DNA from: an uncultured Victivallales bacterium | GTDB lineage: Bacteria; Verrucomicrobiota; Kiritimatiellia; UBA8416 | Reading direction: 5' to 3' | Length of the DNA: 33,510 nucleotides | Assembly (NCBI GenBank): GCA_964523995.1 | Contig: CAZGBW010000002.1 | Coordinates: 1-33,510, forward strand | Part shown: positions 13,014-33,119 of the stretch, piece after piece | Layout of the letters: each line of letters opens with the position of its first letter | Position numbering within the stretch: the first letter of the stretch is position 1 | Notes under the pieces: generated by a model | The model's database searches: none | What the model was told of the DNA's origin: nothing | The model's input: the letters and a program-made list of their open reading frames with translations, nothing else | Program-made: the position numbers and the translations under genes

Positions 13014-13822
13014 GGTGTCGCGGACTCCCGTTTCCGATGGCGATACATCTCCACCATGGCGGCAAGCCCCTGGCACAAATCGAAGGCCGGTACCCATCCG
13101 GGAATCTTGCCGACCATCGGCGTTACCGGCGTCGCGCCTTGCTTCGTTCCGGGAATCACGTCGGCCCCCGTCAGCGCGGCAATCGCCTTGGCCATATCGA
13201 GCACGCGAACCCACTCGAACGAGGTCACGTCATAGACCCCCTGGAAGCGACCGGCCAGCGCCGTATGAAACGCCCGGCACACATCGTCCACATGGATGAA
13301 CTGACGGACCTCCTCACCGGTGGTGATCATCTCGATTCGTCCGTTATCAAGCGCCTGATGCACAAAGTCAGCCACCACATGACTGCGCTCCGTGCGCTCT
13401 TCATAACTGCCGTAGACGTTCCACAACCGGACCCGGACCCCCTGCAGCAAGTGCGTCCACACTTCCCCCAGCCGCTTGGTCACGCCATAGACCGTATCGT
13501 ATTCTTCCGCAAGCTGTGAAGAGACAAACAAGAAGGGCAGCGAAACCTCTCTCAACTGGGGCATCAGGTTCAACAACAACTGCAGGTTCCAGTCCAGTTG
13601 CAGGAACTGGACATCGTCCCGATATAGATATTTGGCACCGCCCACCTCCCAGGCCAGGAAGTAAACCCGGTCGATCCCCGCCAGGGGGAGGCGAACACGC
13701 CGTCCGTCCTCATGATCACCGCGTTTGACATCAAAACGCACCACCTCCTCGCCCTGACGCCGCAGATAATCGCACAGCGGCCGACCGACAAACCCTTCCG
13801 AACCAATCACCAGGTTTTTCAT
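13010..13822 (-). CDS. NAD-dependent epimerase/dehydratase (extended SDR)
   Basis: 270 aa. It has the Rossmann motif MKNLVIGSEGFVGRPL (GxxGxxG) and a YGVTK (YxxxK) catalytic motif. There are ATGA overlaps at both ends. Confidence 0.8.
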   Translation of the reverse strand: MKNLVIGSEGFVGRPLCDYLRRQGEEVVRFDVKRGDHEDGRRVRLPLAGIDRVYFLAWEVGGAKYLYRDDVQFLQLDWNLQLLLNLMPQLREVSLPFLFVSSQLAEEYDTVYGVTKRLGEVWTHLLQGVRVRLWNVYGSYEERTERSHVVADFVHQALDNGRIEMITTGEEVRQFIHVDDVCRAFHTALAGRFQGVYDVTSFEWVRVLDMAKAIAALTGADVIPGTKQGATPVTPMVGKIPGWVPAFDLCQGLAAMVEMYRHRKRESATP

Positions 13823-19316: not shown

Positions 19317-19368
19317 TCTGTCTTCAGTCTTCTGTCTTCAGTCTGTAGTCTTCAGTCTTCTGTCTTCC
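19317..19368. repeat. 14-bp tandem repeat (TCTGTCTTCAGTCT), about 3.7 copies
   Basis: The units are 19317-19330, 19331-19344, 19345-19358 (GTAGTCTTCAGTCT) and a partial unit at 19359-19368. The TCTGTCTTC motif also occurs inside element copies 1 and 3. The repeat overlaps the last codons of the upstream gene. Confidence 0.85.
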
Positions 19369-20713
19369 ACCGGCTTCTCCCGCCGGCCAGCAGTCCGATC
19401 CATACACACGTCAGCATCAGGATCAACGGATGCCGGAACGGGAAATCCACCAGGCTGTGCAAGCCGACACCGCCCAGCGCCAGCAGCAACCCGTAGCCCT
19501 CCAGTTCCATGAACGACGGGACTTGAGTGCTTCTCCGATCATACCGCCGGCTGCTTCTCCCTATCAGCACAAACCCGGCGAGGGTCATCCCTCCTCCCAG
19601 AATGCCATATTCCGCCAGGAACTGCAACGGTTCGCAGTGGGCATGCTTGAAGAAGTACTGATTCACAGGCAGCGTCTGGTAATACGGGAACACCACCGAG
19701 AACGTGCCCGGCCCGGTGCCCCACCATTGGCGTGATCGCCACATCGCCAACGTGTCGCTGGCGACGGTACTCCGGAAGCTCAAGTCATGCCCCACGGCGC
19801 GCACAAGCTGCAGATTCCGCGCGAGGCCGATGCCACCGGATGCCAACACCAGCACAAGGAGGCTGCCGAGAATCATCCGGTGTATCCTGGAAAACGGCTG
19901 CATGGCAAACGGATAACGCCACCGGATCCGCCACTGAATCAGGATGAACCCGATCACCTGCACCACCATCACCGCTATTCCGGCCCGGGATCCCGTCACG
20001 ATAACCGCACCGGCCAGCAGTCCCGCCACCAGATAGCAGAAGCCGGACGGATTTGAAAGTCGTCCGCCTTGGAAGGCCCGGTATTGCGCGCGCGCACCGC
20101 TTGCCAGCGCCACCGGAAAGACCAGATAGGAAAACGCCGCAAAATGATTCTGGCTGACAAAAAGACCTGTCCATTCGTAGACCGGATAGGGTCGGGGAAC
20201 CATCCGCTGATGCAGTGCCAGAAGCGCCATTCCCGCCGCCGCCGACACGATCAGGGCCGTCAACAGACGGCGCGCCCCCGACGGCAGCGATGCGGCAGCC
20301 CCCAGTGACGATGCCAGAGCCACCGATAGCCAAAGCCCCCTGATGGTGCCCTCTGGAAACGCGGACGCTGGCAGCAGGTGCCAGTGGGTCAGGGGGAAAA
20401 GCCCGACGCCCGCTCTCCATTCATGCGATGCATTCAGCGCATAAAGGGCTGGCAGACCGGCAATGAGCATCAGTCCGCCCAGGAAACAACAACGCTTTTT
20501 TTTCGAGGAACCCGCAAGGAATACGCGAAGCAGAAGCGCAGCGGCCAGCAGCAGTCCCGCCGACCACAGGCCAACCGTGCCATACGCATGGGGAGTCACA
20601 CCGTTCAGGCGCTGTTCGAACGCAGCCAACCCTAATGCACAAACCAGTAGACCGCAGAGGATCCAGCCAGCGAGGATCCCACTGGGTATCCCGTTTTTCG
20701 ACCGACTCATCAT
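19352..20713 (-). CDS. O-antigen ligase (Wzy_C) family membrane protein
   Basis: 453 aa counted from ATG 20713 (ATGA overlap with the wzc-like stop). It is polytopic and carries VTGSRAGIAV and WWGTGPGTF...HAHCEPLQFLAEYGILGG motifs typical of the family. Confidence 0.7.
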   Translation of the reverse strand: MMSRSKNGIPSGILAGWILCGLLVCALGLAAFEQRLNGVTPHAYGTVGLWSAGLLLAAALLLRVFLAGSSKKKRCCFLGGLMLIAGLPALYALNASHEWRAGVGLFPLTHWHLLPASAFPEGTIRGLWLSVALASSLGAAASLPSGARRLLTALIVSAAAGMALLALHQRMVPRPYPVYEWTGLFVSQNHFAAFSYLVFPVALASGARAQYRAFQGGRLSNPSGFCYLVAGLLAGAVIVTGSRAGIAVMVVQVIGFILIQWRIRWRYPFAMQPFSRIHRMILGSLLVLVLASGGIGLARNLQLVRAVGHDLSFRSTVASDTLAMWRSRQWWGTGPGTFSVVFPYYQTLPVNQYFFKHAHCEPLQFLAEYGILGGGMTLAGFVLIGRSSRRYDRRSTQVPSFMELEGYGLLLALGGVGLHSLVDFPFRHPLILMLTCVWIGLLAGGRSRWKTED

Positions 20714-22914
20714 GCCTGTCTCGAGAACAACGCCGACATCCATCGGCGTGAGCGCGGACCGCCTTTGCCGACGACCGCTCCGGATACCGTCGGAGGAACC
20801 GGCGGTGCCTGATGGTACTGGTGATAAGCATACCCGCCATAGCGGCGGTAATAGTAATAATTGGCCATGGATTTCAAATCGACCCCGTTCATCAGCACCC
20901 CTAGGCAGGGGACACCGCTTTCCGAGATCCGTTTCATCGCCAGCGCCGCTCCCAGGCTGTGCGTGACCCCGTAACGCACGATAAAGAGCACACCGCCCGT
21001 ATGATTGAGCAGGATCAGGGAATCGCTAACCCCCAGGATCGGCGGTGCATCAATAACGATCTGGTCATAAGCCGATTTCAGGCTCTCGATCAAACCGCTG
21101 AAGGCCTGGCTGCCCAGCAGCTCGGCTGGCCGGGACGGCACCTGACCGGAGGCCAGCACATCAAGCCGCGGTATACAAGGCGGCTGCAATGCATCCTTCC
21201 AGGCAACGTTCCCGGCGAGGACCTCGGCAAGCCCGTGTTCCGTCATTGGCCCCGTGAAGATCTTCTTGAAAGAAGGCCGGCGCAGGTCCGCTCCCAACAG
21301 CAGCGTCCGCCGGTCGTCCTGTGCAAAGCTGATGGCCAGATTCGTCGAGACCAGGGACTTTCCCTCCGATGGATGCGCACTGGTGACCAGAATGACTCTT
21401 GCCTTCTGAATGGACGGATTAATCTTCATGATCGCCCGCAGGGTGCGCAACGACTCGGACACTTCGCCCGCGGGTCTCAGATGCGTGTCCATCCCCCGTT
21501 CGCGATCGTTCTGGCCTGCGATAAACGGCAGCGACGCGAGAACAGGAACCCCCAGGGCACGCTCCACCTCCTCGTTACGGCGGAAGCGGTGATCCGCATA
21601 GTAGAAGAGGAAGATGACCGCTATCCCGCTCGCGACCCCGACAAGGGCACCCCGCAGCAGGAGTTGGCCGCGTCGGGGGCGATAGGGATGGCCTGCCGGA
21701 CGGGCCTCCTCCGCCAGACGAATGACCTCCGTCGGCAGTGTTTCGGCGATACTCGCCTCTTTCATCCGGGCAATCACCGATTCATAAATGTCCTGATCCG
21801 CCTCCACGTTGCGTTTCAGATCGTTATAAGCCACCAAGGCCCGTGCCAGCGTGAACGCTTCCTGCTCCTGGTCCTGCAACGCCTTGGCCAGGTTCTTCTC
21901 GCGGGCCTGCAGCGTCTCGAACCGGCTGAAGAGCGCATACGAGGCCACGTTGAACGCATCCTCGAACTCCCTTGTCAAATGCTGCTCCTGCTGGAGCGCC
22001 TCCTGCAAGTCGGGGTGATCCGACTTGTAACGCTCGCGCAAACGGAAGACCTGCTGCTGCTGCAACCGCAGGCGCGTCAGCGTCTCGGACAGCACCGGAT
22101 CCTCCAGTTGAGAGGCAAAGCCTTCCAGGGGGATCTTCTCCTTGATCTGTTTATCGATGGCCTCCCATTTGCTTTGCGCATCAATGCGCTCGGTCTGCGC
22201 GGAGGTCAGGGCGGCATTCAGCGACTTGAGTTTCGCGATCACGATGTTCTGGTCTTCCTCCAGGGAAACCGATTGCGAATCCTCGCGGTATTTCTGAAGC
22301 GCAAGCATTCCCTTCTCCAGCTTTTCGCGGTACTCGACGGATCGTTCACGCAGCCACTCGACGGCCTGCATCGACGCGGTCATCCGGTTGTCCAGTTCCT
22401 GCTGTATGTACGAGCGGGCCATGGCATTGGCCAATTCACTGGCAATCTCCGCTTTCGGATGCTCTGCCGAAATGTTGATCAGGCGGGTCTTGTCAACCGC
22501 GGTGATTGTGACCAGCGAAAGTGCTGCCGCCGCTTTCGCCGAAAGACCTGAAGATCCAGGGAAAAAATCCCCCCGATCCGCCAGTCCGCTTTGCGTCAAC
22601 GCCTTTTCCATCATCTGCCGGCTGTACAGGGTGTTGATGACCGTGTTGAAATATTCCAGATTGCGGACAGTGACCGCCACCACATCCTGGTAATTCAACA
22701 ACCGGGGCTGGCTTGCCTCCACCATCAGGACCGCCGTGCTCCGGTAATAGGGAACGGCATCCATCAGCCGCCACGCCGTAAAAAGGAACACAACGGCGGC
22801 GGCAGCCAGTCCGAACCAGAACCGTTCAAGCACAATCGCGGTCACTTCATGCCAGTCCGGAATCCGCGAGACCGCCTCCTCCCTGTCCGTCTGCGATAAA
22901 TAAGGTGTTTTCAT
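20710..22914 (-). CDS. Polysaccharide co-polymerase / tyrosine autokinase (Wzc/GumC/EpsB type, PCP-2a)
   Basis: 734 aa. It has an N-terminal TM segment, a long coiled-coil periplasmic region and a second TM segment. The kinase domain has Walker A SAHPSEGKS and Walker B-like IVIDAPPILGVSD, followed by a C-terminal Tyr cluster ANYYYYRRYGGYAYHQYH. Confidence 0.85.
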   Translation of the reverse strand: MKTPYLSQTDREEAVSRIPDWHEVTAIVLERFWFGLAAAAVVFLFTAWRLMDAVPYYRSTAVLMVEASQPRLLNYQDVVAVTVRNLEYFNTVINTLYSRQMMEKALTQSGLADRGDFFPGSSGLSAKAAAALSLVTITAVDKTRLINISAEHPKAEIASELANAMARSYIQQELDNRMTASMQAVEWLRERSVEYREKLEKGMLALQKYREDSQSVSLEEDQNIVIAKLKSLNAALTSAQTERIDAQSKWEAIDKQIKEKIPLEGFASQLEDPVLSETLTRLRLQQQQVFRLRERYKSDHPDLQEALQQEQHLTREFEDAFNVASYALFSRFETLQAREKNLAKALQDQEQEAFTLARALVAYNDLKRNVEADQDIYESVIARMKEASIAETLPTEVIRLAEEARPAGHPYRPRRGQLLLRGALVGVASGIAVIFLFYYADHRFRRNEEVERALGVPVLASLPFIAGQNDRERGMDTHLRPAGEVSESLRTLRAIMKINPSIQKARVILVTSAHPSEGKSLVSTNLAISFAQDDRRTLLLGADLRRPSFKKIFTGPMTEHGLAEVLAGNVAWKDALQPPCIPRLDVLASGQVPSRPAELLGSQAFSGLIESLKSAYDQIVIDAPPILGVSDSLILLNHTGGVLFIVRYGVTHSLGAALAMKRISESGVPCLGVLMNGVDLKSMANYYYYRRYGGYAYHQYHQAPPVPPTVSGAVVGKGGPRSRRWMSALFSRQA

Positions 22915-22938
22915 ACGAGGAAACGCTTTCTGCCGATG

Positions 22939-23592
22939 CTAAAACAGCGTTTGCGGCACCGTGATGACATCGTTCGGCTCCAGGCGGGTGTCCGGCTCTT
23001 TCCCGTCGATAATACGGGAAACCTGCACGCGCATTTTCTTTTGCCGCCCCTCGACGCTGCGGGTGATCAGCACGCGGTTGATGCTGGCAAGGTCGGTGAA
23101 TCCGCCTGCCTGGCCGATCGCCTGTAGCAACGTCATGGGCTTATCAAAGGGGATCGCATGTACACCCGGCGCCTTCACCTCCCCCAGGATGACCACCTGG
23201 GAAGACTGCGAGGAGACCACGCGGATCATCACCCGCGGGTTGACCAGATAGCGCTTGGACAGCAAATCCGTGATCCGGGCCTCGGCCTCCGCCGCGGTAT
23301 ATCCGGATATCTCGACCACCCCGAAAAGAGGATGCCGGATCGCCCCGGAAGCCTCCAGCCGGAAGGTTCCGGAAAGGTCCGGTTCCCGGAAAACATCAAT
23401 CGAAACCTGATCGCCCGCGCGCAGGATGTACCCTTCCGCCAGCCCCGCCTGCACCTCCGGCGAAACGGCAACCCTCGCCCCCCTGCATCCCGCCAAGGAC
23501 AACGGCAGCAAACACAGGCATAACACACCGGCAAGAACGGCTGCAAACCGGAACGTAAACGACAACAATCTGACTTCAGTAATCGCGCTCAA
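22939..23592 (-). CDS. Outer-membrane polysaccharide export lipoprotein (short Wza/GumB type)
   Basis: 217 aa with the lipobox LSLAGC. The Poly_export-like segment is YILRAGDQVSIDVFREPDLSGTFRLEASGAIRHPLFGVVEISGYTAAEAE, and the SLBB-like segment is VVILGEVKAPGVHAIP. The start is TTG (23592 or a nearby TTG) and is uncertain. Confidence 0.8.
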   Translation of the reverse strand: MSAITEVRLLSFTFRFAAVLAGVLCLCLLPLSLAGCRGARVAVSPEVQAGLAEGYILRAGDQVSIDVFREPDLSGTFRLEASGAIRHPLFGVVEISGYTAAEAEARITDLLSKRYLVNPRVMIRVVSSQSSQVVILGEVKAPGVHAIPFDKPMTLLQAIGQAGGFTDLASINRVLITRSVEGRQKKMRVQVSRIIDGKEPDTRLEPNDVITVPQTLF

Positions 23593-23603
23593 ATCAACCC
23601 TGC

Positions 23604-24911
23604 TCAGTAATTCCAGCTTGCACGCAATCCCCAGCGTTCGGAGGAATAGGATGCCCGGTCGCGCTCTTCCTCGCTGCCGCTGCGATTGCCCCTGTTCTCA
23701 AAGTACGAATACGACACCCCGACGGAAAAATTATGTTTCAGCCACCAATCCAGGCCCAGGCTGTAACCCCAATACTCGTCACCGCGCCCGTCATACACCT
23801 CGGACGCCCGCCCGTCATCGATATCCACCGGGCGACCTTCCGTCCCATAGTAATCCACCTGACCATAGAACAGCGATGCCTGCCCCCTCAGCCGCTCGCT
23901 GAAAAGACGGCGGGTAACCCCGGCCGTGGCCCGCTGATCCACCGTCGCGAAACCGGCATCCGTGATCGAGGGGCGGATATCCGCCATCAGGTCACCCGTG
24001 AATGTCGTCAGCCCGAAGGGTGTGGTCTCCGCATTCAGGGAGGCGATGTAGTGGTTCACGTCGTCCAGATCGTCGTCCACCGGACGGCGCCAGCGATAGC
24101 CAATCCGCCCGGAAACACTGGTCTTGACACTTTGCCGGCCGCGCATCCCGACGGAGACATCGTAGAAATCGGCGTCCCCGCTGCGCCCGTGTACCCCTTG
24201 CAGGTCATCGCGCCCGATGCCAAGCTGCAGGTACCCGTCGCTCTTCGGCGTGACACGGCGATACAGCCTTCCACCGCCGTAGTAACGCCAATAGTTGATA
24301 TACCGGTCTTCCTCGAAGTCATGAAACGAGACGCCGCCGACCAACCCCGCGCTGGACTTGGTCGAGAGCCGGTGCTCCAGATCCAGGTCGCCGGTGTAAT
24401 CCTGCTTCACGATACGCGCCCCGACGAGCGTATCCACATTCTCCAGCCGGCGGTAACCGGCACGCGCGTGTATGCTGCTCTTTCCCGTCCGGTACATGCC
24501 GCCGGCCGCCAGCATGTAGCTCGGCTTCTCATCCACGCGATCCGAACTGCGATACAGGGGGATGATCAGTCCGGCATCCGTGTACAGGTGATTGCGCCCC
24601 GGATGACCGTAGACCAGAAGAAGACCGGGCACCGCATAGACGGTGGTCGCATTCTCCGACGGGCCGCTGTTGAGCGTTGCATTATCCTCGTAGGCGGAAC
24701 TGACGGTGATGCGGGGCAGCAGCAGCCAATGGGACTGCAGCGGGATATAGAACGGCGCAAAGGCGGCATCCTCGCTCTCGACATAGGTGGCCGCATCAAC
24801 ACCCCGCGTATAGAACCCGGACGCGTAATAGTCCGTGCCGGCCGACGCCTGTAGCGCAACCCCGAACACAAGCGCCATCAGGCGCGAAACACCAGTTATT
24901 CCATTCCTCAT
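23604..24911 (-). CDS. Outer-membrane beta-barrel protein associated with polysaccharide export
   Basis: 435 aa with a signal peptide (...FGVALQASA). It shows an alternating amphipathic, Tyr/Gly/Arg/Asp-rich strand pattern and a C-terminal aromatic end ...LRASWNY. There is an ATGA overlap with the upstream gene. Confidence 0.6.
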   Translation of the reverse strand: MRNGITGVSRLMALVFGVALQASAGTDYYASGFYTRGVDAATYVESEDAAFAPFYIPLQSHWLLLPRITVSSAYEDNATLNSGPSENATTVYAVPGLLLVYGHPGRNHLYTDAGLIIPLYRSSDRVDEKPSYMLAAGGMYRTGKSSIHARAGYRRLENVDTLVGARIVKQDYTGDLDLEHRLSTKSSAGLVGGVSFHDFEEDRYINYWRYYGGGRLYRRVTPKSDGYLQLGIGRDDLQGVHGRSGDADFYDVSVGMRGRQSVKTSVSGRIGYRWRRPVDDDLDDVNHYIASLNAETTPFGLTTFTGDLMADIRPSITDAGFATVDQRATAGVTRRLFSERLRGQASLFYGQVDYYGTEGRPVDIDDGRASEVYDGRGDEYWGYSLGLDWWLKHNFSVGVSYSYFENRGNRSGSEEERDRASYSSERWGLRASWNY

Positions 24912-26815
24912 CGTGAAGTCTCCTGAAACCGAAACGCCTTGATCATTTCCACTTCATCCTCGCGATAGGCCTTGCCATCCGCGTGGAAAACATCGTGCTG
25001 CCACAAATCCGGATCCTTTTCGGAACGGAACTGCGGCTGCTGGATCCATGTCTGTGTCTTGCCTTTGACCAGCCCCCGGTTGAACCACCCGATGCGGCGG
25101 ACGGCAAAGAGGGGCAGCATCTTCTCGAACGTACAGTCCCGCTGGCGCATCAGCCAGGACGTGCACACGATCGGGCGGTCAAACCGCTCCAGCATCAGGA
25201 GCAGCGGCTCAACGGTCTCGGCACTGTCATAGCTCTGGAACGTGACGAGGTCGGAGCGCTCGTGGATCCGTGCGCCGATCGCGCTGCCGAACCGGCCCCA
25301 GGTGGCAACCGCCAGCGGCTGTCTTGGATTGACATCACGGGCCCAGTTGAAGGCTTGGCTCATCAGCGGCAGCGAGTTCTCCCCGAGCCCCCCGTCCCCC
25401 ACCCGGTTATACAGATCCCAGAACAGGATCCGATCATCGCGCTTGAATTCCCCGATCAGGTCACGCACATACTTCTCAAGACTCGGCCAGGACGAACGGT
25501 CCTGGACATCCTTTGCACCGGGACCGGGGGTCCAGCGCGCATTGTGCTCGCCCGGCACGGGTTCCGGCTGCGGCCCCGTCACCGGCTCGATACCCGCGAT
25601 ATTCCGATCATCGAACAGCACCGGGGTCACCTTCAGGCCATGCCGGTGCGCCAGCTCGAGAAAGCGCCGGAAACGCTCCATGAACCCGTCCGGATCGGAT
25701 TTCCAAACCACGTATTGGAGCTGCACGCGCACCGATGTGTAACCGGCATCGTGCGCCCAGCCCAGTTCCTCGGAAATAACATCCTCATCGAAGGTATCCA
25801 CCTGCCACATTTCCGTCGAATTCACGGCGTAGCGAGGCACATAATTGAAACCCTTGACAGGCCCGATGCGGTTATACCAGTCCCAGATACGCCGCCGGTC
25901 CCAGCGCCCGCCGCGACCCGCTGGACCATCGGGGGAAAGCTGAGGCCGCACGTTGGCGACGGGAACCGGACGGAACGACGGGCTGACATCCGCCACCGTC
26001 ATATCGCCGCCGATAAAGGTGATGGTCGATCCATTCCCCCCGATGTAACGCGACAATCCCTGCCGGTCGAACCGCAACGGGTCATCAAAGAACTGCTCAA
26101 GATCCTGGAAGAACACGTCGCAGACCTCGAACGCCCGCAACGGGGAATCGTTCAACGCCGCGTCGCGCCGCACTTCCGCACCGCCGCCGGGCAACCGTGC
26201 CATCACGGCGCTGCCCTTGTCCGCCAGGGCGACTGCGGTTCCGTTCGCCGGGATCAACTGCTGTTCAAACGCCTCATTGAACACCGCCCACGTTCCATCC
26301 GCCTGCTGGGAGACGGAAAACGTCCCGCCCCCCGCCCGGATCTCGCCTGCATCCATGCTGATGCGGATATCCAGCGAGGGAACCGGGGGTCCGGCATGAA
26401 TCAGGATCCTTCCCTTTAAAAGGTTGATGTATATCCGCCGGACCAGATCCTCCTCGCGCTGTGGAAGCCCATCGGATGCATGCCGTAGCTGCAGGAACGT
26501 CAACTCCGAATCCGGTGCCACGCAAAGCGCCGCCCCCGGCGAAAGGACAATACACAACTGCCCGTCATGTCCGGTCACGAGGCGGGCCGTTTCCCCGACG
26601 CTGCTGTTCTCGTAAACCTCAAACCGCTTCTGGCGTCCTTCATGCACGGGACCGTCACTGAGATAGACACCGGCCGTGCCGACCTTGTTGACCACAATGG
26701 CCTCCCCGCGGCCAGGCTCCGCCCCCGGCACGGGGCTCTCCATCAAACAGCCTGCCAGCAGGATGGCGCATGCCATGCGCCCCCCCCGTGAAACCAGCCT
26801 TGTATTGTTCGTCAT
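24908..26815 (-). CDS. Lipoprotein with FecR-like N-terminal region and clan GH-A (cellulase/'1,4-beta-xylanase'-like) TIM-barrel domain
   Basis: 635 aa with the lipobox ILLAGC. C-terminal motifs are KGFNYVPRYAVNSTEMW, GYTSVRVQL, HGLKVTPVLFDD, GEHNARWTPGPG, FWDLYNR, IVCTSW and VFHADGKAYREDEVEMIK. Confidence 0.55.
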   Translation of the reverse strand: MTNNTRLVSRGGRMACAILLAGCLMESPVPGAEPGRGEAIVVNKVGTAGVYLSDGPVHEGRQKRFEVYENSSVGETARLVTGHDGQLCIVLSPGAALCVAPDSELTFLQLRHASDGLPQREEDLVRRIYINLLKGRILIHAGPPVPSLDIRISMDAGEIRAGGGTFSVSQQADGTWAVFNEAFEQQLIPANGTAVALADKGSAVMARLPGGGAEVRRDAALNDSPLRAFEVCDVFFQDLEQFFDDPLRFDRQGLSRYIGGNGSTITFIGGDMTVADVSPSFRPVPVANVRPQLSPDGPAGRGGRWDRRRIWDWYNRIGPVKGFNYVPRYAVNSTEMWQVDTFDEDVISEELGWAHDAGYTSVRVQLQYVVWKSDPDGFMERFRRFLELAHRHGLKVTPVLFDDRNIAGIEPVTGPQPEPVPGEHNARWTPGPGAKDVQDRSSWPSLEKYVRDLIGEFKRDDRILFWDLYNRVGDGGLGENSLPLMSQAFNWARDVNPRQPLAVATWGRFGSAIGARIHERSDLVTFQSYDSAETVEPLLLMLERFDRPIVCTSWLMRQRDCTFEKMLPLFAVRRIGWFNRGLVKGKTQTWIQQPQFRSEKDPDLWQHDVFHADGKAYREDEVEMIKAFRFQETSR

Positions 26816-27366: not shown

Positions 27367-28242
27367 TCACGCCTGTTCCTTTCGCCAGGTCTCCAATGCC
27401 GACACGGACGACGGCAGCGGCCTGAAATGAAATCGGTTGACCGGAACGGAGCGGGAGATATCATTCAGGGCTTCCAGGGAGGCGTCTGCCCACGCCGACG
27501 CAAACCAGGGAATCCCGGCCATTGGCAACAACGACTGCCATGCATCGCCCGGCGGCAACCGCTCTAGGGACTCGAACGGGGCCTGCGAGAGCAGGAAAAT
27601 CCCGGCCAGCGGAACCTCATCGGCCTCGGCGAAACGACCCGACCCATGCCACGGCGTACCGGCCACGTGCAACCGCCCGTCGCGCCGGAACAGCACCACC
27701 CGGTCATCATTCAATACACGCCATCCCGCCTGATGACAAAGCGCCGACAGCGTCGTTTTCCCGGCACCGCTACGCCCGGCGAACACCAGGCCAAGACCGC
27801 CGCAAACCACGGTGGCCGCATGTAGCAGCACTCCACCGCAACGCCCTAGCAATCCCCATGTGAGAACTTGATCCAAGGGGTAACGCAACGGGGCATCCGC
27901 CGGATCGCCATCCACGCTAAGCGTCGCCCGATCCAGCCCGCCAAGTAACCGGCAGGTGACCCGCGGGCGCTCGCGGCCCGAAAACCCCGTGCAAAACAGC
28001 CAGTCGTCACCATCCTGCCAGACAGCCCAGTTCCGACCCGCCGAAAACCATGGCGAGGTTGCCGGCATCTGACGTGACCCGCGGACAAGCTGCACGGGCA
28101 GCTCGGCCAAGGGACGATACGCCCCCTTGACCTCGCGGTCCGCGAAAAAGCCGCCGTACGCCCAGTCGTCATACCGCACAGGAATGCCCTCATCCCCGTT
28201 CAGCAGAAAACGCACCGGACCCACTGTCAGATGGTTGATCAT
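27367..28242 (-). CDS. HPr kinase/phosphorylase-related P-loop protein (HprK-related kinase)
   Basis: 291 aa counted from ATG 28242, which lies 5 nt after the small ORF's stop. The track start GTG 28311 would overlap the small ORF. LLHAATVVCGGLGLVFAGRSGAGKTTLSALCHQAGWRVLNDDRVVL matches the HprK C-terminal domain pattern (H-x-x-x-V...G-x-S-G-x-G-K-[ST]...DD). Confidence 0.7.
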   Translation of the reverse strand: MINHLTVGPVRFLLNGDEGIPVRYDDWAYGGFFADREVKGAYRPLAELPVQLVRGSRQMPATSPWFSAGRNWAVWQDGDDWLFCTGFSGRERPRVTCRLLGGLDRATLSVDGDPADAPLRYPLDQVLTWGLLGRCGGVLLHAATVVCGGLGLVFAGRSGAGKTTLSALCHQAGWRVLNDDRVVLFRRDGRLHVAGTPWHGSGRFAEADEVPLAGIFLLSQAPFESLERLPPGDAWQSLLPMAGIPWFASAWADASLEALNDISRSVPVNRFHFRPLPSSVSALETWRKEQA

Positions 28243-28247
28243 GGTAT

Positions 28248-28430
28248 TCAGGAGCCTGCCTGCCCGATTCCAGGGAATGGATCCGTACACTCGGTTCCAT
28301 TCAACTTGCACCCCGCCGAAAGAGTTTCCTCGAGCGCCAGATCCACCCGCTGGACCTCCGGCTTGATATAGGGACGCCGCCCCTCCTCGACAGCGAACTC
28401 CGGGCCATGTTGTTCCAGTGTTCTCATCAT
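28248..28430 (-). CDS. Putative RiPP precursor peptide (60 aa): MMRTLEQHGPEFAVEEGRRPYIKPEVQRVDLALEETLSAGCKLNGTECTDPFPGIGQAGS
   Basis: ATG-ATG at 28430/28427 begins 4 nt after the rSAM TAA, with a GAGGG Shine-Dalgarno-like box 7 nt upstream. The TGA at 28248-28250 is followed 5 nt later by the kinase ATG. The peptide has an acidic leader with a YIKP motif and a Cys-containing C-terminal core. Confidence 0.6.
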   Translation of the reverse strand: MMRTLEQHGPEFAVEEGRRPYIKPEVQRVDLALEETLSAGCKLNGTECTDPFPGIGQAGS

Positions 28431-28434
28431 CAGT

Positions 28435-29559
28435 TTACCCTCTTTCCTCGATTGCAACCACCGCCTCATAACGCAGACGGGTTGTCTTCCGCATGTAATC
28501 AGACTCGGTTTCTTCGTCCCCGGTCTCCACCTCGTTGAATGCCGGGCAATGCGTGCAGGCACCCCGCATAGCCCCGTTGAAACTTGTATCGGACCGGGTG
28601 GGCTTCCGGTCCCGTATCCGGGCAAGCTCATCGCGCCAGAGATCCTGGAATGCGCGACCCTGGCCCGGATAGCGGTAAAGCCGCGTCATGAGACAGGGGG
28701 AAAGGAATCCATACGGATCGGCATAAAACGACGTGGTTCCCGCCCCGCACGGGTAGAGCCGGTCCGTGTCGGGACTGCCCCGTCCGCTGCGGACAGATCG
28801 CACCCATTTCCCGCGCTGCTCCGGAACGGCCATGTCCAGGCGCACGGCCTCCTCCGGGGTCACCCGCAAGTCAACAGGCGATGGTGAGGGTTGCGGCCCA
28901 CCCGCAATGCAAGGGAACACGGCGGCATCGAAGCGAAAGGGGACGCCTAGACCGGACGCCTGCAACGCCATGGCCTCCAGCTCGTGCTGATTCAGGGTCA
29001 TCAGCATGGTCTTGAGTCCGACCCGGATGCCGCCGTCGTGCAGACGCCGGATCCCCTCCCACGCCCGCGCATGCGAACCCGGTACGCGCGTAACGTTCTC
29101 ATAGGTCGCGGCGGTCGCCCCGTAGATGCTGATTTCCACCTTCCGGGGCGGTAATTCACGGAAGAGCGCCAGAATCCGATCCGTCACCAGAATCCCGTCG
29201 CAGAATACCGTCACCACCATCCCCAGCTCGCAGGCGTGGCGGTAGACATCCGGAAAATCCGCTCGCATCATCGGGTCACCACCGGTGATCAGCAAGTAGA
29301 GACAGCCGGCATCCGCCCACTCGTCAAGGGACCGCATCACGGCGGCGGTGTCGCATTCGCGTTCGCGATTCGCCACTTGATGGTCCTGGCTTCCAAGATA
29401 GCAATGCCGGCAACGCAGGTTGCAGCGGCTGGTCAATTCGAGCACGGCGGAAAGCGGAATGCGCGCCTTCGCCGCCCGGGTGCGCAGGCCGACCGTCCAG
29501 CCTTGCGATTCCCCGGTAGCCGCCGGGCCGCGCTCCTGTATTGATGTCTCGCTATTCAT
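28435..29559 (-). CDS. Radical SAM enzyme with SPASM/twitch-like C-terminal Cys cluster
   Basis: 374 aa counted from ATG 29559, in an 8-nt overlap (ATGAATAG) with the PqqD-like stop. It has the CNLRCRHC (CxxxCxxC) cluster and a GGDP motif. C-terminal Cys motifs are YPCGAGTTSFYADPYGFLSPC and GACTHCPAF. Confidence 0.85.
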   Translation of the reverse strand: MNSETSIQERGPAATGESQGWTVGLRTRAAKARIPLSAVLELTSRCNLRCRHCYLGSQDHQVANRERECDTAAVMRSLDEWADAGCLYLLITGGDPMMRADFPDVYRHACELGMVVTVFCDGILVTDRILALFRELPPRKVEISIYGATAATYENVTRVPGSHARAWEGIRRLHDGGIRVGLKTMLMTLNQHELEAMALQASGLGVPFRFDAAVFPCIAGGPQPSPSPVDLRVTPEEAVRLDMAVPEQRGKWVRSVRSGRGSPDTDRLYPCGAGTTSFYADPYGFLSPCLMTRLYRYPGQGRAFQDLWRDELARIRDRKPTRSDTSFNGAMRGACTHCPAFNEVETGDEETESDYMRKTTRLRYEAVVAIEERG

Positions 29560-29866
29560 CGTCTGTTCCCGCCACTGCCGCCTCAATCAATCCCTTCTCC
29601 TCAAGACGCTTCACAAAGTCAACGCAGTCCCCCATCGCGGCCTCATCGTCCACCATGAACCGACGGCTGACTTCACGGCTGGCGTCTTCCAATGTCTTCC
29701 CTGCGGAAATACACTCCCAGATCACCGCCCCCGTCTCGTTCAAGGGAAATACCGCATTGGCACGCGCCAGATCGCCCGTGATCGGCACCAGCAGCCGGTC
29801 TTCGCCAATCCGGCGGAGAACCATCCGGCCCGATACCTTGAAACGCATTTTTTCCGGCCCCGTCAT
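29552..29866 (-). CDS. PqqD-family protein (RiPP recognition element / peptide chaperone)
   Basis: About 104 aa. The sequence RIGEDRLLVPITG...VFPLNETGAVIWECISAGKTLEDASREVSRRFMVDDEAAMGDCVDFVKRLEEKGLIE fits the PqqD winged-helix pattern. I prefer ATG 29866, which has AAGGA 8 nt upstream. ATG 29875 and TTG 29887 are also possible. Confidence 0.75.
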   Translation of the reverse strand: MTGPEKMRFKVSGRMVLRRIGEDRLLVPITGDLARANAVFPLNETGAVIWECISAGKTLEDASREVSRRFMVDDEAAMGDCVDFVKRLEEKGLIEAAVAGTDDE

Positions 29867-29888
29867 GACACACATCCTTTTCCGCAAC

Positions 29889-32800
29889 TCACCACCGCTC
29901 CCACTTCCCTGACGTCATATTGATGAACCAGCGAGGATTCCTCGCCCCGTTGTACCACAGCCATGCCTCCGGCGAGGCGCGATAGAGGAAGGGATACGTG
30001 GTGCTGCCCGTCCACAACCACCCCATATCCTGCGTATACATCCAGACACTCTGCGCCGTTCCACCGGCCGGAACGAAAATGAAGCCGTGCTTGTTATGCC
30101 AGACCCAGCCGTCCGGCCCCATCGGGACATAATCCCCGAACCACGTCAGCCGCCGCCACCCGCCGACCAGGGACTGATAACCGGAATCCCAGCCCGAAGG
30201 CGCCGGGACCGCGGCCTGGGTGACGGTGAAGATCCGGGTGAGACCCCCGCCGGTCACCGAAAGGGATCCATGACGGACCGCGCCGCTGTTGGTCTCGATC
30301 CGGTATGTCACCGTCCCGCTATTGATGCCGGAGGAACCACCCGTTATCGTGATCCAAGGGGATTGCGAGGTTGCGGTCCAAGGGACAATCGCCGTGACCC
30401 CGACGGTCTGGCCGGTCACGGACGCACTCGAATGCTCCCGGTTCGTCGGGCTGAGCGCAAGATAACCATGAAGGGTGACAAAATCGCGGATGGCCGCGAG
30501 GCTGTAGACCGGATCCGCCAGTTCGGAAACCGTGAACCGCTCCCAGCGCCAGTGCGCGATCATATTGATCCATGCGGGGGGAACATTCCCTTCGCCGCCC
30601 CGGAGCTTCAGCGCGGGATCCCCCAGCAGGTTATACGTCCGGATCGCATCGGCGTGTAACCCACCCAGGACACCGAACGAACGACGGGTCTGCTGCAGCA
30701 GCGGACCGATGGTGTCCACCCGCTCGTCGGCGTGAATGCGGTGGAACTCGTGACTGAATTGACCCGCAAAACTGTTCCAGGACAGCCCCGCCGGCGCATA
30801 GACCGCCAACGCACCGCCATTCGGCTGCAGGACCAGCGCTTCCGCCAGGCACCGCTGCGTCGCGAGATAGATATCGAACCGCCCAATCAGGCAGGTCATG
30901 GATGCAAACAGCAGCAGCGGTGAATTCGTCATGCCGACGACATCGTCATAATGCAGGAGATTCTCATCCGCCAACTGCCGGTAGCTGCCATGACCGGTAT
31001 AGTGGATCATCCCGGAACCGTTGGTGATGGCGGCTCGGATATCGGCACGAACCCCGGCCACCGTGTTGGAGTCCAGCGAGGTGTACGCAAGCGTGTAGCG
31101 CTTTTTCGCCTCGGTGCCCATTTCGAGATTGCTGGCGGTAAAATCACCACCGCCATCCGCATTGTCAGCCGCGAGCAGCGCCATCGCATGCCTTGGCCGC
31201 GCAGCCGCCGCCTCATAGGCCTTCAACTTGGTGATATAGGCATTGAACTGCGTGACACTCTGCACCGGCAGGCGCCCGACCGCCAGGTCCGGTACCCCAT
31301 CAGCACCGGCAACATCCCCGAACAGCGAGTCTGATGGCCTTAACGTGGCCGAATCGGATCCCAGCAACGATGGCAGGTAACTGGTCAGCGCCGTCTGGGC
31401 ATTGAAATAGTCATAATGCCCCCAGCCGCCCAGAACCACCATCCAGGGAGCCATGCCCCACTGCTGACGGGCATACACCAGGAAATCCCGAATCGCCTCG
31501 GGTGTCGCCAAGCCGCCGCCGAACTGGTCGCAAATGTCCTCAAATACCGCGACGGCGCTGCGGAGACCCAGACTCGCGCGGTAGTCCGCCAGGGCCTGCG
31601 CCGGGACTTTGAACGCCCGCGGGGCGATGACCAGATAATCCACGGCATTCGTGGTAGCGCGCATCCAGCCGCCGTTACCTCCGGATTCCGCCTCCACCGC
31701 AGGAATGCCCGACCTCTCGCGCAACGCCCACGCGGTTCCCGCCGCGACGGGCCAGCTCCAGCCCGAAGGCAAAACACCCGCCGCGTCCGCGATCCAGACC
31801 GGATCAAGAGGATCGGTCACATCCAGGACGAGCGGATCGGTGAACAGGGCGGAGGAAAGACGGGCATGCCCGCCATCCGTGGCCTTGAGAATCGGCACCC
31901 GCGGCGCATAGTACTGCTGGTAGGCAACCTCGAAACCATCCACCACGATCGTACTGCTGATCACGCCATCCTGCAGGATTCCCTTGATCTTGAGTTGGTT
32001 TCCCGAGGGCAGCACGGTGCCCGCCGCCGCCGTGAATACGGCCGAGACGTCTGCCTTCCCGTCAAACAAAACCTCGCCGAGCAGCGTGTTGTTGAAGCGG
32101 ACTTCCGCCTTGTGACCGAGACCCGACGGGGTTTCGTTCCATCCGGTCAGGCGTACCGTGAACGTCACGCTTCCCGACGCATAACCCCCCAGCGGAACCT
32201 CGAACGTTCGCTCGCCGGTACTCGCGTTGCCGCTGTCGATATGCGTCCAGAAGTAGAGGTCGTCACGCAGTACCCCGCTGTGCTCGACCATGCTGACGAG
32301 ATCCTGCTCGAAATCCTGCCTTCCGAAAAACGTCTGGTTCGTCGGCACGGCAACGGATGCTGGCGACACGCGCTGCATGTGCATGCCCGCCCCCGGCTCG
32401 ATCCAGAAGACATTCCTGCGGGTGTAGCGGTTCGTGGCACCCCATCCGTAAAACAGGATGCGCTCAAGGGGGGCATCCACCAGATACGCCACCGGCTCGT
32501 TCCCGCAGCGCATCGCCAGAAGCGCATCGCGAGCCTTCACACCGACCTCGGCAGGCGTCAGCCCCAATCCGGCGGCTACCGAAGCAAACGACACGGAATA
32601 GATGTCGTTCGAGATCACCGGCAGCTTGACCGCCGGGCCTGTCACCGACACTCCCTTTGATGATGATTTCGGTCGCTCGGACTGCTCTGGCGAAAGGACA
32701 GCCACCGGTTCTTCCGCGTCCTCCTCAAACCGCACCGTCCAAACCCCCAGCGTCAAGGTTCGTCCATCACCACGCAACTCTTCCAGGCGATAGGTCGCCT

Positions 32801-33119
32801 CCGTTCCCCTCTTGCGCGTTCCGTCCACCAGGGTATAGGTGCTGGAAGGACTCGTGATATCCGCCGGGATGGTTCCATCATGCAACGGAACTTCACCCTC
32901 AGCGTCCACGCGGAACACCCGGTATCCAGCCGTACCGAACTCCGAGCCCGTCGTCCAGACCAGCTCGGCCTGCCCCCCCGTCCAGCGGCCCGAGACGCTC
33001 TCGATATCCGCCGATAAGGGATAGCCGGCCAACGCCGCCAGGGCACCCCCGATCAGGAGCACCCCGGCTAGGCCTGCTGCCCGCCGCCACGGAGGTCGGA
33101 TTGTTCGTCTCGTCTTCAT
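29889..33119 (-). CDS. Secreted peptidase C25 (gingipain-type) domain protein with BACON-like domain and Trp-rich C-terminal module
   Basis: 1076 aa with ATG at 33119 and a signal/anchor segment (AGLAGVLLIGGALAALAG). C25 hallmarks are VDYLVIAPRAF, MVVLGGWGHYDYF, SDSLFGDV...VPDLAVGRLPV, the catalytic-His box IHYTGHGS and the catalytic-Cys box LLLFASMTCLIGRFD. The BACON-like stretch is PWTATSQSPWITITGGSSGINSGTVTYRIETNSGAVRHGSLSV. Confidence 0.75.
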   Translation of the reverse strand: MKTRRTIRPPWRRAAGLAGVLLIGGALAALAGYPLSADIESVSGRWTGGQAELVWTTGSEFGTAGYRVFRVDAEGEVPLHDGTIPADITSPSSTYTLVDGTRKRGTEATYRLEELRGDGRTLTLGVWTVRFEEDAEEPVAVLSPEQSERPKSSSKGVSVTGPAVKLPVISNDIYSVSFASVAAGLGLTPAEVGVKARDALLAMRCGNEPVAYLVDAPLERILFYGWGATNRYTRRNVFWIEPGAGMHMQRVSPASVAVPTNQTFFGRQDFEQDLVSMVEHSGVLRDDLYFWTHIDSGNASTGERTFEVPLGGYASGSVTFTVRLTGWNETPSGLGHKAEVRFNNTLLGEVLFDGKADVSAVFTAAAGTVLPSGNQLKIKGILQDGVISSTIVVDGFEVAYQQYYAPRVPILKATDGGHARLSSALFTDPLVLDVTDPLDPVWIADAAGVLPSGWSWPVAAGTAWALRERSGIPAVEAESGGNGGWMRATTNAVDYLVIAPRAFKVPAQALADYRASLGLRSAVAVFEDICDQFGGGLATPEAIRDFLVYARQQWGMAPWMVVLGGWGHYDYFNAQTALTSYLPSLLGSDSATLRPSDSLFGDVAGADGVPDLAVGRLPVQSVTQFNAYITKLKAYEAAAARPRHAMALLAADNADGGGDFTASNLEMGTEAKKRYTLAYTSLDSNTVAGVRADIRAAITNGSGMIHYTGHGSYRQLADENLLHYDDVVGMTNSPLLLFASMTCLIGRFDIYLATQRCLAEALVLQPNGGALAVYAPAGLSWNSFAGQFSHEFHRIHADERVDTIGPLLQQTRRSFGVLGGLHADAIRTYNLLGDPALKLRGGEGNVPPAWINMIAHWRWERFTVSELADPVYSLAAIRDFVTLHGYLALSPTNREHSSASVTGQTVGVTAIVPWTATSQSPWITITGGSSGINSGTVTYRIETNSGAVRHGSLSVTGGGLTRIFTVTQAAVPAPSGWDSGYQSLVGGWRRLTWFGDYVPMGPDGWVWHNKHGFIFVPAGGTAQSVWMYTQDMGWLWTGSTTYPFLYRASPEAWLWYNGARNPRWFINMTSGKWERW

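Follow-up and report, generated by a model that had tools for sequence, protein, structure and literature searches.

A conserved 60-codon gene between a radical SAM enzyme and an HprK-like kinase probably encodes the precursor of a widespread RiPP family

Gene content of the locus

Within a 33,510-nucleotide stretch of contig CAZGBW010000002.1 from an uncultured Victivallales bacterium (the window, taken at its full length), a gene of 60 codons lies on the minus strand between genes for a radical S-adenosylmethionine (rSAM) enzyme and an HprK-like kinase. An earlier note on this DNA, made from the sequence alone, had read this open reading frame (ORF) as encoding a peptide with a lasso-like leader grafted onto different chemistry, and here we describe the peptide, its homologues and the genes that accompany it. 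In minus-strand order, these genes encode a C25 peptidase, a PqqD homologue, the rSAM enzyme, the peptide and the HprK-like ScmC protein, with an S24 peptidase convergent on the plus strand. We use S24 for an S24/S26-type homologue of Sec11/SipW-type signal peptidase I (SpI-like), and RRE for a recognition element of peptides made on the ribosome and then modified post-translationally (RiPPs). The features of this cassette are as follows.

29889-33119, minus strand: secreted C25 (gingipain/PorU-like) cysteine peptidase with a BACON domain, a signal peptide and a conserved His710/Cys743 dyad
29552-29887, minus strand: discrete PqqD-family RRE, matching Pfam PqqD at 7e-13, with lasso PqqD chaperones as the best NCBIfam match
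28435-29586, minus strand: rSAM enzyme, starting at TTG 29586 or ATG 29559, with CxxxCxxC at C55/C59/C62
28438-28447, minus strand: Shine-Dalgarno-like GGAAAGAGGG (GAGGG ribosome-binding site), read directly, within the 3' end of the rSAM gene
28248-28430, minus strand: candidate precursor peptide gene, 60 aa plus stop, identified from the sequence read, homologues, conservation and the ratio of nonsynonymous to synonymous differences (pN/pS)
27367-28242, minus strand: HprK-like P-loop kinase of the ScmC family (PF27840), assigned by profile, fold and invariant residues
26855-27319, plus strand: soluble Sec11/SipW-type (archaeal/ER-type) signal peptidase I homologue, a candidate leader peptidase, convergent with the operon

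The peptide gene opens with a double ATG at 28430-28425 and closes with TGA at 28250-28248, and its translation, MMRTLEQHGPEFAVEEGRRPYIKPEVQRVDLALEETLSAGCKLNGTECTDPFPGIGQAGS, matches the earlier reading exactly. Its start lies 4 nt downstream of the rSAM stop codon (TAA at 28437-28435), 7 nt separate GGAAAGAGGG from the peptide ATG, and the next gene begins with ATG at 28242, 5 nt past the peptide stop. This tight packing, with gaps of 4 and 5 nt, points to an operon-like arrangement. A mechanical ORF list does not show the peptide by itself, but as the end of a longer ORF (127 aa, 28248-28631) overlapping the rSAM gene; we rejected the longer frame as the true product because homologues start near the internal ATG and the upstream part is the rSAM C-terminus in another frame.

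The peptide consists of a variable N-terminal leader (residues 1-20), a conserved block (Y21-K42, at 28370-28305) and a variable tail (L43-S60). It contains two cysteines, C41 in the block and C48 (28289-28287) as the only one in the tail, and it ends in Gly-Ser, with Ser60 at 28253-28251. The landmarks counted out in the earlier note, Y21(0)-P24(3)-V26(5)-D30(9)-T36(15)-S38(17), C41, C48 and C-terminal Ser60, are all present in the window sequence, and the first acidic residue of the core proposed there does stand at core position 10, outside positions 7-9.

Conservation of the peptide family

A search of 5.8 billion proteins returns 12 called homologues in all (E 1e-33 to 8e-8), with 11 other small proteins (50-62 aa, E 4e-28 to 8e-8), and in the alignment of these close homologues Y21-K42 is nearly invariant, as is a C-terminal A/G-G-S. 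Scanning one genome per GTDB species adds 13 further loci, all from metagenome-assembled genomes (MAGs) of the Planctomycetes-Verrucomicrobia-Chlamydiae (PVC) group, with Kiritimatiellae, Victivallales/Lentisphaerae and Verrucomicrobia represented. When a family profile is run against 1.84 billion cluster representatives (50% identity, E <= 1e-3), 122 clusters match, nearly all of them peptides of 45-72 aa, and a metagenome scan with sequences of a sister clade yields 218 more relatives. Where sources name family members at all, they are called 'hypothetical protein'. Pfam and NCBIfam scans of the window peptide together with 12 close and 10 distant homologues, at E up to 10, give only two spurious matches. 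The family is large, without a Pfam or NCBIfam model and without literature coverage.

For conservation counts, we used 216 distinct homologous peptides. All share a fixed block of 22 residues, Y-x-K-P-x-[LIV]-x2-[IV]-[ED]-L-x2-[ED]-E-[VT]-L-[AS]-x-G-C-K, which has the same length in every one of them. Counting from the tyrosine (Y21 in the window), the block positions are occupied as follows.

Position 0: Y, 215/216
Position 2: K, 175/216
Position 3: P, 216/216
Position 5: L/I/V, 209/216
Position 8: I/V, 213/216
Position 9: E/D, 168/216
Position 10: L, 212/216
Position 13: E/D, 188/216
Position 14: E, 214/216
Position 15: V in 112 and T in 88 of 216
Position 16: L, 190/216
Position 17: A in 114 and S in 70 of 216
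Position 19: G, 202/216
Position 20: C, 216/216
Position 21: K, 216/216

Conservation as high as that of the leader extends up to G-C-K, and variability begins only past Lys42. The tail that follows has 15-30 residues of variable sequence, with one Cys in 88 peptides and two in 127. Tails with two cysteines tend toward the pattern C-x4-C-x3-G-S, in which the first and second Cys are spaced by 5 (80/127) and the second lies 5 from the C-terminus (101/127). At the C-terminus, Gly (196/216) is followed by Ser (206/216) or Thr (7 peptides), so that Ser/Thr closes 213/216 sequences, and this is the only hydroxyl residue conserved family-wide.

Over 153 pairs, the 22-codon block has a mean pS of 0.71, with synonymous sites near saturation, and a pN of 0.15. 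The resulting ratio of 0.20 in this frame indicates purifying selection, and the 60-codon ORF is a real, strongly conserved gene. On this point the earlier note is borne out: the homologue search that it called for finds conserved small ORFs beside homologous rSAM genes, the frame is conserved across the 216 peptides, and homologues, synteny and pN/pS agree on a genuine gene next to an rSAM enzyme and a PqqD-like RRE. The two cysteines and the C-terminal Ser that it singled out are also conserved. Its lasso leader motif survives in part: YxxPx[LIV] is kept throughout, but position 9 is E/D and not G, position 15 is Val or Thr, and position 17 is mostly Ala. The proposal that Thr marks position -2 from the cleavage site fares less well, since Thr36 is clade-specific (the Val and Thr counts at position 15 are given above) and does not count as evidence for a lasso-type site.

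The RRE and the radical SAM enzyme

A profile built from 27 sequences of the family RRE recovers TbiB1 (3e-10), PbaB1 of the paeninodin type (2e-7), LppB (9x8z, 6e-7), PqqD (1e-5) and TfuB1 (4e-5), and in sequence the family RRE is closest to the lasso B1 proteins. Among solved structures, the rSAM enzyme comes closest to PqqE (4e-13) and to SkfB (2e-10), a twitch enzyme that forms thioethers, and many sactipeptide/SPASM maturase models match it at 1e-12 to 1e-22.

Across 60 rSAM homologues, C280-x17-C298 (a C-x12-G-x4-C element) and C344-x2-C347 are invariant. The enzymes of the clade with two-Cys tails have extra cysteines at positions 335, 338 and 366 in window numbering, which complete the full seven-Cys SPASM motif, whereas the PVC clade is without them. 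By homology to anSME, we take the missing cysteines to be three of the four ligands of the second auxiliary cluster (AuxII). From these residues, the window enzyme should keep only the first auxiliary cluster (AuxI) and be twitch-like. Cys344 of the window enzyme is a possible vestige of the site of a second auxiliary [4Fe-4S] cluster.

The cysteines of enzyme and substrate vary together. All loci with the full seven-Cys SPASM motif (45/45) encode two-Cys tails, while all loci without the AuxII cysteines (16/16) encode one-Cys tails, mostly with Thr at block position 15 and Ser at position 17. This covariation points to a link between the rSAM enzyme and the Cys residues of the tail.

The kinase and the two peptidases

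The ScmC kinase has at least 710 homologues, all of them PF27840 and none informatively named. Its profile matches Lactobacillus casei HprK/P at 5e-7 across the His/P-loop/DDR catalytic core, and among 49 kinase homologues H141, G156-RSGAGK-T164 and N178-D-D-R181 are invariant or nearly so. The AlphaFold2 model has a predicted local distance difference test (pLDDT) score of 95.6, and with it Foldseek returns the PEPCK and HprK/P fold. The Asp-Asp pair corresponds to D158/D159 of PsmK. The D158A/D159A form of PsmK is inactive; in the precursors of PadeK and PsmK, it is the C-terminal Ser whose side chain becomes phosphorylated, and in pseudomycoidin the phosphate on this Ser carries hexoses (PMC6993621).

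The S24 peptidase matches TIGR02228 (archaeal-type signal peptidase I) at 6e-7, with 29 bits against a cut-off of 51.85. A profile of 14 family sequences recovers human SEC11C/SEC11A at 8e-11 to 7e-9 and bacterial signal peptidase I at 1e-5, and the invariant residues G35-x-S37-M-x-P40, H75-R76 and G91-D92 are those of the Ser-His-Asp type. The gene is present in 25/32 loci with enough flanking sequence. As the protein is without an N-terminal membrane anchor, it is probably cytoplasmic. In the C25 peptidase, G-H710 and C743 are conserved with a separation of 33 residues, like that of the gingipain dyad, and the gene for this enzyme lies directly upstream of the RRE gene in nearly all related loci. 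Its best NCBIfam match is the type IX secretion system sortase PorU (174 bits against a cut-off of 420).

Three proteins that define the system had no part in the earlier reading, namely the C25 peptidase, the SpI-like peptidase and the HprK-like kinase, and they would explain the invariant C-terminal Ser.

Synteny and genomic neighbourhood

Related loci, numbered with the prefix L, preserve the order C25-PqqD-rSAM-peptide-ScmC-S24 from 85% to ~30% protein identity. With profile hidden Markov models built from the family, and counting only loci with enough flanking DNA, the genes co-occur with the peptide as follows.

One-Cys-tail clade: rSAM 15/16, PqqD 12/14, ScmC 14/16, S24 11/12, C25 10/10
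Two-Cys-tail clade: rSAM 36/36, PqqD 27/27, ScmC 38/39, S24 14/20, C25 9/11

In the PVC clade, the cassette is always followed by a polysaccharide-export block, and the extended order C25-PqqD-rSAM-peptide-ScmC-S24-FecR protein-BBP2-Poly_export-Wzc recurs in L001-L017 from 95% to ~35% protein identity. In the window, the block comprises the following features.

20710-26815, minus strand: polysaccharide-export block as a whole
24908-26815, minus strand: FecR-domain protein, 635 aa
23604-24911, minus strand: BBP2_2 outer-membrane barrel
22939-23592, minus strand: Wza-like Poly_export protein
20710-22914, minus strand: Wzc-like tyrosine autokinase

Further downstream in the window lie a Wzy_C gene, Wzm/Wzt and many glycosyltransferases. 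The fixed place of the cassette inside an exopolysaccharide (EPS) export locus in PVC bacteria hints at a function connected with the cell envelope or with biofilms.

Several neighbours deserve description in their own right. The FecR-domain protein (24908-26815, minus strand), the first gene past the cassette in the PVC clade (46-94% identity), is secreted and has an N-terminal FecR domain followed by ~450 C-terminal residues that match no family. The Wzy_C/O-antigen-ligase-family gene of the same locus lies at 19352-20743 on the minus strand; the Wzy_C family includes O-oligosaccharyltransferases that glycosylate Ser, including the C-terminal Ser of pilin, and this gene is a tentative lead for the conserved C-terminal Ser of the peptide. 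Upstream of the C25 gene, 33250-33510 (minus strand) holds the 3' end of a giant gene. The protein encoded by its counterpart at L001:1-5144 has 2867 aa and numerous repeats of the SdrD_B and CarboxypepD_reg types, and it looks surface-adhesin-like. In the glycosyltransferase-rich part, two long minus-strand ORFs of 382 aa (8649-9797) and 478 aa (11778-13214), which may be genes or artefacts of overlapping frames in GC-rich DNA, have no Pfam match. Plus-strand ORFs at 20959-22551, 24983-26419 and 31416-32660, among others, run antisense to the Wzc, FecR-protein and C25 genes; as all homology evidence is on the minus strand, we regard them as shadow ORFs of GC-rich DNA and not as genes.

The sister clade with two-Cys tails comes from diverse metagenomes (GC 34-68%) and keeps C25-PqqD-rSAM-peptide-ScmC-S24 without the EPS block, in heterogeneous flanks. 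In a distant lineage known from megabase contigs (L102/L103), a MacB/FtsX-type ABC exporter stands between ScmC and S24 (L102:11271-16216); a DruA-like gene and an IS66 transposase flank that cassette. An NTP_transf_5 gene occurs sporadically among related loci (L033:10015-11142, L058, L078 and L083), and an ABC ATPase gene is found in L083, L039 and L072; the added genes of L083 lie at L083:37-2656. Extra genes for a glycosyltransferase or a BBP2_2 barrel are seen in some loci. The NTP_transf_5 and ABC ATPase genes of these sister-clade loci are of the kind typical of clusters for linear polyphosphorylated peptides or paeninodin.

Comparison with known systems

The closest characterised system is that of the linear polyphosphorylated peptides (LPPs) of Bacillota, made by LppA/LppB/LppK/LppS (Popov et al., Nat Commun 2026, PMC13381572). 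LPP clusters encode the LppB RRE, the HprK-like kinase LppK, the SipW-like SpI peptidase LppS, an NTP_transf_5 transferase and an MsbA-like pump; they lie in capsular polysaccharide loci, and their precursors have the motif YxxPxVLxHQxIxFETxxS (PMC13381572). LppK adds several phosphates to core Ser3, LppS needs LppB to present the leader and then cuts after the T(-1) in E-T, and the [Y/W]xxP element, common to lasso, LPP and PQQ (pyrroloquinoline quinone) leaders, is essential for RRE binding (PMC13381572). TIGR02228, the model that the S24 peptidase approaches, marks all 126 LppS proteins.

Our cassette shares with LPP clusters the trio of RRE, HprK-like kinase and SpI peptidase as well as the polysaccharide context. 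In the window peptide, E35-T36 stands at Y+14/Y+15, the identical spacing, and Ser38 at +17 compares with +18 in LPPs. PVC-clade peptides have Y, P, V/I, E(14) and T(15) in common with the LPP motif at identical spacing, but not its L at 6, H at 8, Q at 9, I at 11 or F at 13. A profile of the peptide family run against PDB chains, with the LppA leader in 9x8z as the object, gives chance matches only. The differences are several. An rSAM enzyme and a C25 peptidase are added here, ORF scans of the window find neither an NTP_transf_5 transferase nor an MsbA-like pump, and LPP precursors (35-200 aa) have variable C-termini without conserved Cys or C-terminal Gly-Ser. LPPs are described as Bacillota-only, whereas the present cassette occurs in PVC-group bacteria and diverse metagenomes, and the LPP paper with its supplements mentions no rSAM enzyme, no C25 peptidase and no PVC taxa (PMC13381572).

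The phosphorylated lasso peptides paeninodin and pseudomycoidin resemble the present family in having a [Y/W]xxPx[L/V] leader with a discrete B1 RRE and an HprK-like kinase that acts on the C-terminal Ser, which is nearly invariant here. For the target of the kinase, the enzymes of these two pathways are the better analogy than LppK. The present cassette differs in having an rSAM enzyme, in being without a macrolactam cyclase, a B2 cysteine protease or an acidic acceptor within core positions 7-9, and in that leader removal presumably falls to an SpI-type serine peptidase. The window ORFs that we scanned with Pfam and NCBIfam make up most of the window; in these and in annotated related loci, we detect neither an Asn-synthetase-like macrolactam cyclase nor a transglutaminase-like B2 protease, and the absence of both rules out a lasso peptide. 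The description of the peptide as a lasso-like leader on different chemistry is partly right, in that no lasso cyclase or B2 protease is at hand and the conserved YxxPx[LIV] is a motif generic to lasso, LPP and PQQ leaders.

Thioether RiPPs made by rSAM/SPASM enzymes (the SkfB and AlbA products, ranthipeptides/SCIFF) and the PqqE system have in common with our cassette a SPASM/twitch rSAM enzyme, an RRE and a short Cys-bearing substrate. Here the RRE is a separate protein, a kinase and SpI-type and C25 peptidases are added, curated cut-offs are missed widely and the precursor matches no known precursor model.

SynChlorMet (SCM) cassettes, finally, also combine a ScmC-type HprK-like protein, a PqqD homologue and a PqqE-like rSAM/SPASM enzyme, and the kinase matches the broad PF27840 model. 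The present cassette has one rSAM enzyme where SCM has two, its C25 and SpI-like peptidases fall outside SCM as described, and its proteins score far below the SCM models (ScmC 24 bits against a cut-off of 125, ScmD 17/100, ScmE 77/400, ScmF 66/400). To our knowledge, the TIGRFAM description presents SCM without an identified precursor; in the present cassette, a precursor is identified. Our literature searches returned no paper on SynChlorMet, on ScmC or on a cassette of HPr kinase, rSAM and PqqD, and nothing on C25 with rSAM and RRE or on this cassette in Kiritimatiell* RiPP work; HPr kinases in lasso clusters receive no more than a mention in one mining paper of 2014. The cassette falls within none of the named families as curated, with the LPP feature set incomplete and the SCM, PQQ and sactipeptide maturase models below cut-off.

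A proposed maturation pathway

We consider it near certain that the ORF encodes a genuine RRE-dependent RiPP precursor. The fuller reading, in which it is the precursor gene of an uncharacterised, widespread RiPP family made by the RRE/rSAM/kinase/peptidase cassette, has in our estimate a probability of about 70%. In its working, the cassette would come closest to an LPP-type pathway to which cross-linking by an rSAM enzyme has been added. The peptide would be translated from its own ribosome-binding site within the operon. Recognition of the leader by the RRE would use Y21-x-x-P24-x-V26, in the manner known from lasso, LPP and PQQ systems, and the RRE would present the peptide to the enzymes. 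The rSAM enzyme, with its single predicted auxiliary cluster, would modify the Cys region, the likeliest product being a thioether or similar cross-link from Cys48 and/or Cys41; thioether chemistry as such we propose tentatively, by analogy with related enzymes.

Phosphorylation of the peptide on Ser is, by analogy, the better-founded of the modifications and is somewhat favoured. The ScmC kinase would most likely act on Ser60, as PadeK and PsmK do on lasso precursors, and Ser60 is the likeliest target because it is the only hydroxyl residue conserved across the whole family. An alternative phosphosite is Ser38, which is clade-specific and would be analogous to LPP Ser3. We rejected Ser38 as a family-wide site, as position 17 is mostly Ala in the two-Cys clade, which keeps ScmC in 38/39 loci.

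The soluble SpI-like peptidase would remove the leader in an RRE-dependent manner, and by analogy with LppS the cut would most likely fall after Thr36 (Y+15, after E-T). Such a cut would leave a core beginning LSAGCK and not, as in the earlier prediction of a 23-aa core from Ser38, SAGCK. Other possible cuts are the site of that prediction, one residue later, and a small-x-small site after Gly40, and we prefer the cut after Thr36 only tentatively. The product would then be exported, and the secreted C25 peptidase may trim it, possibly after invariant Lys42, or attach it in a PorU-like transfer.

A number of observations weigh against this pathway, in whole or in part. Cross-link type, phosphosite and cleavage site all rest on analogy, and the analogy with LppS is imperfect, in that the position equivalent to P1 in LPPs is Val in most family members, not Thr, and the P3 residue is not Phe, as LppS needs. 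The proteins miss every curated NCBIfam cut-off for named rSAM, PqqD and HprK-related systems. The covariation between SPASM and tail cysteines is suggestive, though it reflects a single split of two clades and is possibly a coincidence. Core peptides are not usually as conserved as a leader, yet L37-K42 is, and the window has no dedicated peptide exporter, only the Wzm/Wzt of the polysaccharide pathway. In two Kiritimatiellae MAG contigs of 3-4 kb (L009:822-1007 and L010:2304-2558), the peptide gene lies directly between C25 and Wzc, and PqqD, rSAM, ScmC and S24 are absent from these contigs, where the genes are possibly unlinked; the peptides still keep YxxP, GCK, the tail Cys and C-terminal GS. 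In a Victivallales MAG (L006:8513-10186), ScmC and S24 are absent, the FecR protein follows directly behind the peptide, and the PqqD ORF is apparently truncated or frameshifted past its N-terminal strands, which may reflect a decaying cassette or an assembly error. Together, these three loci, the conservation of L37-K42 and the missing exporter leave open a role tied to the C25 peptidase and the polysaccharide machinery, instead of or beside that of a free secreted peptide.

Alternative readings

The most serious alternative, although we judge it unlikely, is that the peptide acts chiefly in the envelope or the exopolysaccharide, as a component or a regulator, and less as a free natural product, for example with its C-terminal Ser-phosphate glycosylated or serving as a polymer anchor or primer and the C25 peptidase attaching or releasing it. 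This overlaps our explanation without excluding it. The position of the PVC cassette, invariably between C25 and the FecR-protein/BBP2/Wza/Wzc block at 35-95% protein identity, fits such a role, as do the direct C25-peptide-Wzc arrangement of L009/L010 and the Wzy_C gene and many glycosyltransferases downstream in the window. LPP and paeninodin clusters also lie in capsule loci and are co-induced with an EPS gene, the phospho-Ser of pseudomycoidin carries hexoses, and PorU is the best NCBIfam match of the C25 peptidase. That match is, however, far under its cut-off (174 against 420 bits), and the window has no NTP_transf_5 glycosyl/nucleotidyl-transferase. In the two-Cys clade, moreover, tblastn with the EPS proteins of the window finds almost no EPS genes beside the cassette, the flanks are heterogeneous, and the exporter in one lineage is of the MacB type that is typical for peptides that are secreted. 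A more specific version, somewhat less probable still, would have the cross-linked, C-terminally phosphorylated peptide joined to the exopolysaccharide of the locus, or priming it, through its Ser-phosphate, much as pseudomycoidin receives hexoses on its phospho-Ser, with the PorU-like C25 peptidase attaching or releasing it at the surface; if true, PVC bacteria would have a system for conjugates of glycan and ribosomal peptide.

It is quite improbable that the peptide instead gives rise to a small peptide-derived redox cofactor, in the way that PqqA yields PQQ and MftA yields mycofactocin, with few conserved residues retained in the product. PqqE is the closest solved relative of the rSAM enzyme (4e-13), the RRE motif is common to PQQ leaders, and reactivity could reside in the strictly invariant G-C-K and in C-terminal G-S. 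PqqA (WKKPAFIDLRLGLEVTLY) aligns with the conserved block without gaps, a lead from visual comparison only. No PqqA, MftA or other family model matches the peptides even at E = 10, however, and the enzymes fall well short of the cut-offs for PqqE (63 against 381 bits), MftC (72 against 265) and PqqD (21 against 46). The cassette has no PqqB/C- or MftD/E/F-like genes and no partner dehydrogenases, whereas it does have a secreted protease and, in some loci, an exporter, and the hypervariable length and sequence of the tail are typical of bioactive RiPP cores rather than of cofactors.

Still less probable is a reading in which the kinase serves dehydration, with phospho-Ser converted to dehydroalanine and captured by Cys in a lanthionine-like ring of class III/IV style, while the rSAM enzyme does something else. 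Although Cys and Ser stand at a fixed C-terminal spacing (5 residues from the second Cys to Ser in 101/127) and the kinase is nearly always present, Pfam and NCBIfam scans find no phosphoSer/Thr lyase or cyclase homologue in the cassette, and known HprK-like RiPP kinases leave stable mono- or poly-phosphates. We know of no precedent for elimination at a C-terminal Ser, which also speaks against this reading.

A lasso precursor or a chance ORF in the rSAM/kinase junction we can practically dismiss: the YxxP..T..S spacing is lasso-like and the ORF is short and hidden in a longer mechanical one, but the window and the related loci examined have no detected cyclase or B2 protease, core 7-9 has no acidic residue, and 216 homologues with fixed synteny and a pN/pS of 0.20 are not what chance would leave.

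Significance for PVC bacteria and RiPP biology

With our preferred reading, that of an RRE-dependent precursor matured by the rSAM/kinase/peptidase cassette, the missing substrate is identified for a widespread combination of HprK-like ScmC, PqqD RRE and rSAM enzyme, and a large precursor family without a Pfam or NCBIfam model is defined. It would join two hitherto separate lines of RiPP research, one on cross-linking by rSAM enzymes and one on the HprK-kinase/SpI-peptidase pathway known from Bacillota LPPs (2026), and it would extend the latter pathway to Gram-negative PVC bacteria. The C25 peptidase, of gingipain/PorU type, is added to the candidate RiPP-processing enzymes. Cassettes of the phosphorylated-RiPP type thus appear in polysaccharide loci of Bacilli and, as an independent case, in those of Kiritimatiellia, Lentisphaerae and Verrucomicrobia, and the suspected link between such peptides and capsule or biofilm biology is thereby made testable.

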